From positions 95,263-159,262 of the IMG/VR virus record IMGVR_UViG_3300044609_000960: a DNA stretch of 64,000 nucleotides. The stretch is one strand, 5' to 3'. The translations under genes and the position numbers were made by a program. How positions within the stretch are numbered: the first letter of the stretch is position 1; every line of letters starts with the position of its first letter. Below, in pieces: positions 52,316-55,072 of this stretch. Under the pieces are notes generated by a model. The model was not told where the DNA came from and did not search any database. It saw nothing but the letters and a program-made list of their open reading frames with translations. The DNA comes from a virus.

Positions 52316-55072
52316 ATGCCTTTACGCCAAGGATCTTCGGATAAAGTAATCCAAGAAAATATTAAATGTATCTTAGATAAAGACGGATGTGGCTATGACC
52401 CACCGTATTTAGATCCGGCTAGGGATGAATATACACCGGCCCAGGCTGCGGCTATTGCCTATGCAAAAGCCGGGCGTAGAAACAATGTGGGTAAGAAAAC
52501 CTCTGCTTCTAAAAAAACAAAGAGCGTAAAAACCCAAGAGGTTAAAACACCTGAAGGGAAAAAGGACGAGCCAAAGGGTGATAAGTCTACATCCCCTGCT
52601 CAATCCGCCAAAAAAGAAAAAGACACAGATACTAAAAACCCAGCAAATAACATCCAGATCCCCGATGGGTGGAAAACACAGCAACCTGGAGGGGATATTG
52701 ATAGTTCAAAAAAGAACCAACCTCCTGAGGGAGCTCCTAAGCCTCAGGGGGGTCAGAAAACTCCCGAACCTCCGTCATCTGCTGGTGACGACTACGAAAA
52801 ACTCTACCAAGACAATAAGGATCTCCTTGAGAAGGCGTATGGGGGTAATGGTATTGATGTAAAGGGAGGTGTATGGGACATCCTAGAAGATAAGATGAAG
52901 CAGTATATGTTAGATACTGCTCCAAAGATTGTAGCAGAAAAAGAAAAGAATAAAAAAGCAAAAGCACAGGCTCCTGCTCCTGCTCCTGCTCCTGCTCCTG
53001 CTCCTGCTCCAAAGGATGGTAATAATAGCGGGGGTGGAGATGCTGGGAGCGATGATAATAAGATGCTCCAAAACATCCTTGATTCTCCAGATGTTAATGA
53101 TGCTTATAAAAAAGCTATAAAGAATCAATGGAAGAATAGCACTCCTGAAGAAAAAAAGGCAATACATGACCAATACGTAAATAATATAAAACCTGCTCCT
53201 GCTCCCACTCCAGAGCCTCCCGCACAATCCCAACAACCAGCACCTTCTTCGGCATCTACTGAAGATAAATACGAAAAACTCTACCAAGATAATAAAGATC
53301 TTCTTGAGGAGGCATATGCCGCGGACGGAACTGACGTTAAAAAGGTATGGGACTTAGTAGGTGATAGTTCGAAACAGTTTATGTTAGATGAGGCTCCAAA
53401 AGTTATAGAAGAAAAGAAGAAAAAGCAAGCAGCCCAACAGACTTCTCCCCAGCCCCAGCCTACTGACGTAAATACTCCGCAGGATTGGAATTGGGACCCA
53501 AATAATTATGGCCCACAACTTAAAGGTGATCAACTATATTTCCAAGGTAAAACATATAAAGAATCTGGCACGCTTCCAGGATCAACAGCACCTAAACTAT
53601 ATGTCGATGAAGATGGTAAGCCAAAGTTTGTTGTAAAAGATAATGGTGGAAATGTAGATCAAACCAATTCTGAATACATAGCTAATAGAGTATATAATGA
53701 ATTAGCTCAGCATATGCCAATTGGCGCGTCGGCATCTAGATTGGCAGATGGAAAACTAGTAAATAGTTTCATCCAAGATGGTAAGACATTAAAACAACTT
53801 TCACCCCAAGAGTTGGTTGATAATAAAGTATATTCTAGCATAAGAAAATCTATGTTAGCCGATGCTCTATTGGCTAACTGGGATTTTATTGGATTAGATC
53901 GTGATAATATAATGATGGATAAATCCGGCAATCTTATCAAAATAGATGCTGGAGGCACATTTAACTTTAGAGCTCAAGGAGATAATAAAAATTACAATGC
54001 TCTCCCGATGGAGATGTGGAGTCTTAAGGATGATAAAAATGGGCAAGGAAACCCGTATTGGAAGAATGCCATAGATGATGATTATAAGCATCTATGGACA
54101 GATCAAATAAGCCAACTCTATGTACATTCCTCTAATCTCAAGAAGATTGTAGATAAGTCTAACTTAGATGATAATGTAAAAGCTGCTTTTGGAAAAAGAG
54201 TAGATTCTTTAATTATTGCCAAGGATGAGATAGATGACTTTGCAAGTAAATCTGGGGATCCTGAGTCTTGGAAGGATGTTGATCAAGCATTAAAAGCTGC
54301 CTTTGAAAAGTCACAAGCAATTGATCCAAATAATCCAGATTGGGAATCAGAATTAAGAAAAAATATAGCAAGTGAATTAAGTACTGTAAAAACCAAAGCT
54401 AGTAATAGCGTATTTAATCAATCTAATAAGTATTTTGATAAACAAGAATATGAAGACTATATTGTATCAGCAACCGCATTAGCATCAGGTAGTCCTGGAG
54501 GCGATGCTTTTAAAAATGCTACTGATGACCAAAAATATTCTATCTATGCCTACACTGGAAGCGCATATGAAGATCTTAATATGTATTTAAATTTTGGAAA
54601 AAGTTTAAACCAAGAACATGCAGAACATAATGAGAACTTAGGGAATTCGATAGAATCTTTATTGGATACTTTACCACCTGATACTAATACATTATATAGA
54701 ATGAATGCTGTACCCGATAGCTTTCCTGATTCCCAACAAGCTATTAAAAATCTCAAAGTTGGAGATGTAATTGCCACGGCTGGATTCGACTCATATACTA
54801 GATATGATGATGGTCTGGTTATGAATACATTCGGAAAAGGACCTGGCCATTTCCATTATGTATCCGTATATCAAGGAAATCAAGCTAGGGACGTAGATCC
54901 TATTTCTATGTGTAGGGGTGAGAAAGAATCCTTATTACAAAGAGGTAGTAATTTAAAGGTTTTAAAAATTGAGGAAGTGCCTTTGAGTAATTTTCCAAAA
55001 CTTTCAGATAATAGATATCCAGATACGCACGCAACAGGGATGATTAAAGTTATTACTTATGGAGATGCCTAA
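52316..55072 (+). CDS. Multidomain effector: HipA/PI3K-like kinase plus VIP2-type ADP-ribosyltransferase
   Basis: Kinase-like K441, E453, D523, N531, D544 (ANWD...DN...IDAGG); ART YT...LN.YL, R795, S826, E869-x-E871. Confidence 0.75.
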   Translation: MPLRQGSSDKVIQENIKCILDKDGCGYDPPYLDPARDEYTPAQAAAIAYAKAGRRNNVGKKTSASKKTKSVKTQEVKTPEGKKDEPKGDKSTSPAQSAKKEKDTDTKNPANNIQIPDGWKTQQPGGDIDSSKKNQPPEGAPKPQGGQKTPEPPSSAGDDYEKLYQDNKDLLEKAYGGNGIDVKGGVWDILEDKMKQYMLDTAPKIVAEKEKNKKAKAQAPAPAPAPAPAPAPKDGNNSGGGDAGSDDNKMLQNILDSPDVNDAYKKAIKNQWKNSTPEEKKAIHDQYVNNIKPAPAPTPEPPAQSQQPAPSSASTEDKYEKLYQDNKDLLEEAYAADGTDVKKVWDLVGDSSKQFMLDEAPKVIEEKKKKQAAQQTSPQPQPTDVNTPQDWNWDPNNYGPQLKGDQLYFQGKTYKESGTLPGSTAPKLYVDEDGKPKFVVKDNGGNVDQTNSEYIANRVYNELAQHMPIGASASRLADGKLVNSFIQDGKTLKQLSPQELVDNKVYSSIRKSMLADALLANWDFIGLDRDNIMMDKSGNLIKIDAGGTFNFRAQGDNKNYNALPMEMWSLKDDKNGQGNPYWKNAIDDDYKHLWTDQISQLYVHSSNLKKIVDKSNLDDNVKAAFGKRVDSLIIAKDEIDDFASKSGDPESWKDVDQALKAAFEKSQAIDPNNPDWESELRKNIASELSTVKTKASNSVFNQSNKYFDKQEYEDYIVSATALASGSPGGDAFKNATDDQKYSIYAYTGSAYEDLNMYLNFGKSLNQEHAEHNENLGNSIESLLDTLPPDTNTLYRMNAVPDSFPDSQQAIKNLKVGDVIATAGFDSYTRYDDGLVMNTFGKGPGHFHYVSVYQGNQARDVDPISMCRGEKESLLQRGSNLKVLKIEEVPLSNFPKLSDNRYPDTHATGMIKVITYGDA
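52793..53401 (+). repeat. Internal ~45-aa duplication (52793-52927 and 53270-53401)
   Basis: YEKLYQDNKDLLE.AY...DVK..VWD...KQ.MLD.APK occurs twice. Confidence 0.9.
52970..53011 (+). repeat. (GCTCCT)6-GCTCCA microsatellite encoding (AP)7 linker
   Basis: Read directly. Confidence 0.95.

Follow-up and report, generated by a model that had tools for sequence, protein, structure and literature searches.

The window analysed here, which forms the final 64 kb of an IMG/VR virus record of 159,262 bp rated as complete, encodes at 52316-55072 on the plus strand a 918-residue protein, P0001, in which a 57-residue leader and a long low-complexity linker are followed by two predicted enzymes, an atypical protein-kinase-like domain and an ADP-ribosyltransferase (ART) domain. 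The novelty lies in the combination: a widespread kinase-ART cassette is carried on a modular, MuF-independent leader in a marine cyanophage, whereas head-packaged ARTs, MuF toxins and polyvalent proteins are already known as concepts. We read P0001 as a late-expressed effector of a TIM5-like cyanomyovirus whose kinase and ART cargo probably travels inside the virion and is injected into the host, and assign this reading a probability of roughly 60%. The gene and its catalytic features are:

52316..55072, plus strand: the whole P0001 gene, comprising leader, linker, kinase-like domain and ART (open reading frame [ORF] reading, family alignment)
53513..54385, plus strand: residues 400-690, predicted atypical protein-kinase-like domain (AlphaFold2 [AF2], Foldseek, VIA-align, invariant residues)
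Within the kinase-like domain, plus strand: Gly-rich loop LPGSTAPK, residues 420-427
53636-53638, plus strand: kinase-like residue K441
53672-53674, plus strand: kinase-like residue E453
53882-53884, plus strand: kinase-like residue D523
53906-53908, plus strand: kinase-like residue N531
53945-53947, plus strand: kinase-like residue D544
54413..55069, plus strand: residues 700-918, R-S-ExE ART domain (PF03496, AF2, Foldseek)
54698-54700, plus strand: ART residue R795
54791-54793, plus strand: ART residue S826
54920-54922, plus strand: ART residue E869
54926-54928, plus strand: ART residue E871

The kinase-like domain is defined by a conserved set of residues placed where a kinase would have them. 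The 11-member family alignment shows no variation at K441, E453, D523, N531 or D544, and across 99 diverse homologues of the domain the invariant positions are G422, K441, E453, D516, D523, G526, N531, D544, G546, A553 and G555, with D530 conserved in at least 90%. The AF2 model of the domain (predicted local distance difference test, pLDDT, 96.1; predicted template modelling score, pTM, 0.93) includes a helical C-lobe and places K441 at the end of a beta-strand, E453 in the next helix, D523 to N531 in a loop and D544 just past two short strands; in the model this is the canonical kinase layout of beta3, alphaC, catalytic loop and DFG-like motif. Structural comparison points the same way. Foldseek ranks actin-fragmin kinase (AFK), CtkA, PI3K and PRPK at the top (E ~1e-4), and VIA-align returns a Z score of 14.6 for Helicobacter pylori CtkA (root-mean-square deviation, rmsd, 3.5 over 213 aligned residues), followed by CotH (12.7), PI4KIIalpha (12.6), HipT (11.0), Vps34 (about 11) and AFK (10.5); all 50 of the 50 entries listed are kinases. 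The language-model neighbours of the domain belong to the LepB_N, HipA_2, PI3_PI4_kinase and Act-Frag_cataly clusters.

Curated sequence families, by contrast with this fold, give almost nothing. Pfam contains no kinase-family match for P0001 at E <= 1 and NCBIfam none either, only one of 48 kinase-domain homologues in a Pfam scan matches HipA_2 (E 5e-4), and a search of PDB sequences with the protein and with a kinase profile gave nothing significant, its sole hint being a choline-kinase N-lobe at E 0.077. Because the domain is without a Pfam or NCBIfam match yet is predicted to fold like the HipA/CtkA, PI3/4K and AFK class, it is, on the model, a new sequence family in an atypical branch of the protein-kinase-like superfamily. 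It appears to hold a complete set of ATP-binding and phosphotransfer residues, and phosphotransfer would be its expected activity.

The C-terminal domain can be assigned from sequence as well as structure. Pfam PF03496 (ADPrib_exo_Tox) covers residues 733-889 with 45.7 bits against a curated cut-off of 23.4 (E 6.2e-12), and R795, S826, E869 and E871 are invariant in the 11 family members. A 62-sequence alignment was used to build an AF2 model of residues 700-918, which reaches a pLDDT of 95.2. The model's best solved match in Foldseek is the Tre1-Tri1 entry (6drh/6dre; E 7.5e-12, TM 0.85 by target, rmsd 2.9), with Certhrax, Vis, ExoS/T, C3, VIP2 and SpvB next; there are 134 PDB matches at E <= 0.001, and those listed are ARTs. 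In the R-S-E ART clade, ExE instead of QxE indicates an arginine acceptor, and the ExE motif together with Tre1 as the closest structural match makes arginine specificity a reasonable expectation for P0001. An earlier note on this DNA had picked out the same five kinase-like residues and the same four ART residues as marks of an atypical kinase and an R-S-ExE ART. Both assignments are borne out, the first by invariance, predicted fold and structural matches and the second by PF03496, invariance, predicted fold and the Tre1 match; checked domain by domain, the models match solved kinases and solved ARTs.

The pairing of the two domains extends well beyond this phage. When residues 395-700 were searched against 1.84 billion cluster representatives, at least 2,923 matched the kinase domain (E <= 1e-3; 799 of them with E <= 1e-10), mostly as parts of large multidomain proteins. 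An ART of P0001's family is present in 58 of the 149 kinase-domain representatives checked (39%). Where the two are adjacent, the order is kinase-then-ART 60 times against ART-then-kinase 8 times, with a median gap of about 60 residues, and one metagenomic protein of 3,416 residues, P0023, strings together five tandem kinase-ART units (KAKAKAKAKA). Judged by these sequences, the kinase-ART pair is a conserved and widespread two-enzyme cassette. Its other partners are frequently phage head proteins: in the Pfam scan, 17 of the 48 kinase-domain members had MuF, 9 ADPrib_exo_Tox, 6 ART (PF01129) and 4 NUDIX, and ART-PolyVal, DRAT, Zeta toxin, portal and WGR turned up once each. Structural neighbours in BFVD and ESM-Atlas are phage proteins annotated as portal, MuF/head morphogenesis or ADP-ribosyltransferase. 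P0012, on a contig labelled Synechococcus, has the architecture MuF-kinase-ART, and its gene comes two places after that of a DUF4055 (portal-family) protein; the kinase domain also occurs in large 'ADP-ribosyltransferase' proteins of Pseudomonas, Aeromonas and Gordonia phages. In the literature searched we found no description of a kinase-ART pair or of an actin-fragmin-kinase-like phage domain.

Separately, one viral cluster of 940-residue proteins in the ESM Atlas combines the kinase fold with ARTs and shows Pfam matches to the anti-Gabija protein Gad2 in 40% of its members. Homology of Gad2 (SPbetaL7 Gad2, PF26128) to P0001 was rejected, with an hhalign probability of 0.2 for the kinase and ART profiles, so Gad2 is probably a separate third domain in these proteins. 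The cluster hints that some kinase/ART proteins carry anti-defence modules.

Upstream of the cassette, P0001 contains the following features:

52316..52486, plus strand: residues 1-57, leader MPLxxGSS...AQAAAIAYAKAGRR, the long form of the phrog_2423 module (family alignment, phrog_2423)
52487..53512, plus strand: residues 58-399, K/P/D/A-rich low-complexity linker (composition, repeats)
52652..52672, plus strand: IQIPDGW, the first P[DE]GW motif, residues 113-119 (P116 and G118 nearly invariant)
52763-52975 and 53237-53449, plus strand: DNA of the two ~70-residue linker repeats
53471..53491, plus strand: NTPQDWN, a degenerate second copy of the motif, residues 386-392, directly preceding the kinase domain

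The leader is almost invariant across the 11-member family, and phrog_2423 matches its residues 1-17 (E 2e-6). A short form of the same module begins P0022, a protein encoded downstream, which aligns with the P0001 leader at E 3e-8 and matches phrog_2423 at E 1.3e-18. This short leader occurs in 437 phage records. It constitutes the first ~40 residues of gp26, the head maturation (prohead) protease of Burkholderia phage BcepB1A (L012:4001-4126), and likewise the N-terminus of the prohead protease in AP22-like phages; in PB1-like phages it is a stand-alone 68-residue gene between the MuF-like 'head morphogenesis' and protease genes, and phiKTN6 gp19 (L013:4001-4207) carries it as well. Since the short form heads a prohead protease and sits in the head module of PB1-like phages, the leader is probably a head-morphogenesis module, and on enzymes it is best read as a prohead address.

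What follows the leader varies. It was found on 60 protein clusters whose cargo includes kinase-ART, ART alone (P0186), small acidic proteins like P0022 and, in the metagenomic relatives P0176, P0181, P0196, P0204 and P0214, a Pkinase-like kinase distinct from that of P0001 and nearer to canonical Pkinase/Bud32-like enzymes (motif HNDMHGNNFF...DFG). This suggests that cargo is interchangeable at a 57-residue leader address. All leader-bearing cargo types also carry P[DE]GW motifs. In two metagenomic relatives, P0174 and P0202, long and short leaders stand in tandem.

The linker accounts for most of the ~400-residue, repeat-containing low-complexity N-terminus described in the earlier note, a description that composition and repeats confirm. 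Residues 61-400 are 15% K, 11% P, 10% D and 10% A, an (AP)~7 run is encoded by GCTCCT repeated 6.8 times at 52970-53010, and the ~70-residue repeat is present in two copies, at about residues 150-220 and 308-378, that are 56% identical (E 1e-26). Linker length differs between homologues. In the second, degenerate P[DE]GW copy P388 is invariant and W391 nearly so, and relatives have V-P-E-G-W (PEGW) at this place. The motif is strongly enriched in the phage, with 9 occurrences in ~182 ORFs, where residue shuffles give 0.31 +/- 0.56 and, in 300 of them, never more than 3. All nine copies lie inside the window, between 13544 and 59717, and five of them fall in the closely packed genes at 51931-56312, usually no more than about 12 residues from the protein end. 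As S-TIM5 gp067, which carries VPDGW, is annotated as a virion structural protein, a role of P[DE]GW as a virion-association tag fits the pattern, though the fit is not proof.

The timing of expression can be approached through a sequence motif upstream of the gene:

52284..52291, plus strand: GTTTAAGG, a one-mismatch variant of the GTTTAAA(G) motif, 25-32 nt before the P0001 ATG

Within the window GTTTAAA is present in 25 copies, where shuffled sequences have 12.1 +/- 3.9, and the GTTTAAA(G) motif is found before late or structural-type genes of the phage. Exact GTTTAAA copies precede the genes at 46073, 55238 and 56393 by 32-37 nt, and an exact GTTTAAAG is found at 55206-55213, before P0022. 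We infer from this pattern that the motif is a promoter. Because it is enriched and lies shortly before structural-type genes and, with one mismatch, before P0001, late co-expression of P0001 with the structural genes is likely.

The phage itself is a relative of the S-TIM5 cyanomyoviruses, a TIM5-like cyanophage that carries psbA and shares 62% identity with S-TIM5 in its primase. The start codon of P0001, an ATG opening an uninterrupted frame, is confirmed by its homologues, all of which begin MPL[RK][QE]GSS. Ahead of the gene, on the same strand, lie in order a CIS-tube-like gene at 46073-47887, one resembling a tape-measure or lysin gene at 47902-50991, a gp25-like gene at 50991-51512 and another three ORFs, all small. 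P0001 is the next large gene after this tail and baseplate string; beyond it lie P0022, two small genes and, at 56800-58077, an endolysin gene. The gene order around P0001 is conserved in two other contigs. Its immediate neighbours are:

51931..52092, plus strand: 53-residue ORF ending ...VKVPDGWHTKEP, orthologue of S-TIM5 gp067
55072..55203, plus strand: 43-residue ORF whose ATG overlaps the effector stop (TAATG)
55238..55876, plus strand: P0022, 212 residues, with a short-form leader, an acidic region, a Cys motif and a C-terminal VPDGW

S-TIM5 gp067 itself ends ...VVPDGWKTKE and owes its virion structural label to the S-TIM5 record annotation. Of the 43-residue ORF, relatives keep the C-terminal PEGW[RK]EQGK but neither the rest of the sequence nor the TAATG overlap. 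P0022, whose leader begins MPLKEGSS and whose acidic middle region is accompanied by the Cys motif CW..Y...PNCVP, has, like P0001, no NCBIfam match; its S-TIM5 orthologue gp066 contains the C-terminal part and lacks the leader. Further downstream (region 56393-58077), a 136-residue protein with a hydrophobic N-terminus, orthologous to S-TIM5 gp064, overlaps the start of the 425-residue endolysin, which has lysozyme and C39-like peptidase domains; the two are possibly a holin-endolysin pair. At 58692-60883, between Hsp20 and a virion structural gene, lies a pair consisting of a MoxR-type AAA ATPase and a DUF2201/VWA-like protein, annotated in S-TIM5 as ATPase and HNH endonuclease.

Virion delivery, which the earlier note had proposed, is plausible on comparative grounds. 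In homologues, the kinase-ART pair is found joined to head proteins of the MuF or portal type; the leader has counterparts in the N-terminus of prohead proteases and in a small gene of the head module; and the gene is placed after tail-tube, tape-measure-like and gp25-like genes, as is T4 alt. In the mechanism that we favour, the leader and the disordered linker flanked by P[DE]GW motifs would recruit P0001 into the assembling particle, which it would then leave together with the DNA. Inside the cyanobacterial cell, the cassette would phosphorylate host proteins and would ADP-ribosylate host proteins on arginine. Takeover of host functions or disabled defences would be the outcome, and the host-takeover or anti-defence role suggested in the earlier note thus stays at the level of a proposal. 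The enzyme activities, arginine specificity, packaging, injection and targets of P0001 are all put forward here as predictions.

Several observations weigh against this reading. P0001 itself has no MuF (PF04233) or portal domain according to Pfam, the similarity of the leader to prohead proteases is short (about 40 residues at 35-58% identity), and the promoter-like motif before the gene has a mismatch. When the whole protein was searched by tblastn against 50,697 phage records, no S-TIM5-group phage matched P0001, and in S-TIM5 the syntenic slot is filled by small hypothetical genes; as the cultured S-TIM5 group is without the gene, proteome data for that group do not bear on P0001. On the enzymatic side, the kinase-like and ART structures are both predictions, the kinase-like domain matches no curated family, and other reactions are possible for kinase-fold enzymes. 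The catalytic Asp could be D523 or D530 and is not assignable with certainty, because D523 lies 8 residues before N531, where 5 is usual, and D530 is also conserved.

The earlier note had spoken of a dual warhead, and while both of its enzyme assignments stand, their independence stays conjectural: with its strict kinase-then-ART order and its tandem (KA)5 array, the cassette looks more like two enzymes working as a unit. Such a coupled cassette would act in sequence on one substrate or on a nucleotide. Phosphorylation might prime or lock the ADP-ribosyl mark, the kinase might modify ADP-ribose or NAD, or the kinase-fold domain might carry out non-kinase chemistry or serve as the substrate-recognition or regulatory module of the ART. 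Coupling is compatible with virion delivery and competes only with the idea of two independent warheads. In its favour are the kinase-then-ART order in 60 of 68 adjacencies, the median gap of about 60 residues and the P0023 array, as well as the fusion of the P0001-type kinase fold to NUDIX, HD and phosphatase domains. Precedents exist in the kinase-fold enzymes SelO and SidJ, which catalyse AMPylation or glutamylation, the target of SidJ being an ART. However, the leader carries an ART alone in P0186 and a Pkinase-like kinase alone in P0176 and P0204, so each enzyme type can be a lone cargo; 61% of the kinase-domain representatives examined are without a detectable ART of P0001's family; and both domains retain full ordinary catalytic residue sets. 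Coupling seems to us possible but doubtful. We would hold only as a speculative conjunction, improbable as a whole, that kinase-then-ART is one two-step machine producing a composite or locked modification resistant to host hydrolases (which may be phosphorylated ADP-ribosyl-arginine or phospho-primed ADP-ribosylation) and, at the same time, that leader and P[DE]GW are a MuF-independent address loading interchangeable cargos into TIM5-like cyanophage virions.

Other readings concern where and on whom P0001 acts. It might never enter the particle and, made late, act only in the already infected cell like T4 ModA/ModB, perhaps modifying host or phage proteins in assembly or lysis, with leader and P[DE]GW serving assembly-site localisation or regulation. 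The missing MuF and portal domains would fit this, as would the position of the gene between the tail genes and the lysis module and the fact that the S-TIM5 record labels only a 50-residue P[DE]GW protein here as virion structural, not the P0022-equivalent neighbours. The physical fusion of homologous cassettes to head proteins, and a leader that also occurs on prohead proteases, enzymes residing within the prohead, argue for packaging instead; moreover, an enzyme made and acting only late would have little time for host reprogramming. On balance we consider a purely intracellular late role unlikely. A toxin aimed at competitors, used for interbacterial killing, superinfection exclusion or against co-infecting phages in the manner of the MuF polymorphic toxins of temperate phages or the type VI secretion system (T6SS) toxin Tre1, appears highly improbable. 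The closest solved ART is indeed the interbacterial toxin Tre1, a role as bacterial weapons has been suggested for MuF toxins (Jamet et al. 2017, PMC5576092), and the small conserved ORFs flanking the gene could in principle be its partners. Yet the phage is a large, psbA-carrying relative of S-TIM5 with no obvious basis for a prophage-borne toxin role, no ARH or macrodomain-type immunity gene was present among the neighbours scanned, and the downstream small ORF is conserved only in its PEGW tail.

If P0001 is a packaged and injected effector, as we favour, its interest reaches beyond this phage. The first minutes of an infection are decided by injected phage enzymes, of which to our knowledge few besides T4 Alt have been studied. 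Since marine picocyanobacteria rank among the primary producers of global importance, an enzyme that rewires them at infection would be ecologically relevant. The leader, in turn, offers a small candidate for the signal by which marine cyanophage particles are loaded with proteins.

Comparison with known systems places each part of P0001 near a familiar family and at a distance from it. The kinase-like domain shares with HipA/HipT/CtkA, PI3/PI4-kinases, CotH and AFK a predicted bilobal fold and an equivalent set of Lys, Glu, Asp...Asn and Asp residues. It differs from them in its 10-15% identity, in having no Pfam match to these families and in its catalytic loop, NWDxxGxxxDN where those kinases have D-x4-N. 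The ART is of the same R-S-ExE type as Tre1 (the arginine-ART of the Serratia T6SS), C3, VIP2, ExoS and Certhrax, and Tre1 acts on bacterial proteins; identity to these enzymes is only 14-20% and the delivery route differs, and no Tri1-like immunity gene was seen near P0001.

T4 Alt, which is packaged in the head, injected and specific for arginine, is similar in being an R-S-E ART encoded beside baseplate and tail-tube genes, alt adjoining genes 27, 28, 29, 48 and 54. In sequence, the Alt-like family phrog_802 gives a weak match (E 1.2e-4) to residues 616-796 only, and pairwise BLASTP of P0001 against T4 Alt is insignificant (E 0.12). The capsid-targeting N-terminus of T4 Alt is unrelated to the P0001 leader. 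A hidden kinase-like domain in the N-terminal half of T4 Alt was considered and rejected (hhalign probability 0.1).

The closest conceptual parallel is with phage effectors of polyvalent or MuF type. Packaged and injected head ARTs, MuF toxins and polyvalent proteins form an accepted model (PMC5512222, PMC9503650, PMC5576092). According to Iyer et al. 2017 (PMC5512222), genuine polyvalent proteins are without Alt/VIP2-type R-S-E ARTs, and the kinase family described there, from Verrucomicrobia and Bacteroidetes, has a conserved His...Asp with an insert and has lost the C-lobe. Set against that description, the P0001 model has a helical C-lobe and a catalytic loop without the conserved His. Iyer et al. 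2022 (PMC9503650) report Alt/VIP2 ARTs fused to MuF, and the text searched does not mention a kinase partner. Like the polyvalent and MuF-fused ART effectors, P0001 combines several unrelated enzymes in one polypeptide, is encoded in a late or structural gene setting and is predicted to be packaged and injected, and true homologues of its kinase-ART pair are themselves fused to MuF. Unlike the MuF effectors, P0001 has a 57-residue prohead-protease-like leader together with P[DE]GW motifs and no MuF. The cyanophage version thus separates the cassette from MuF and would represent a second modular way of addressing cargo, with the leader found on at least four cargo kinds.

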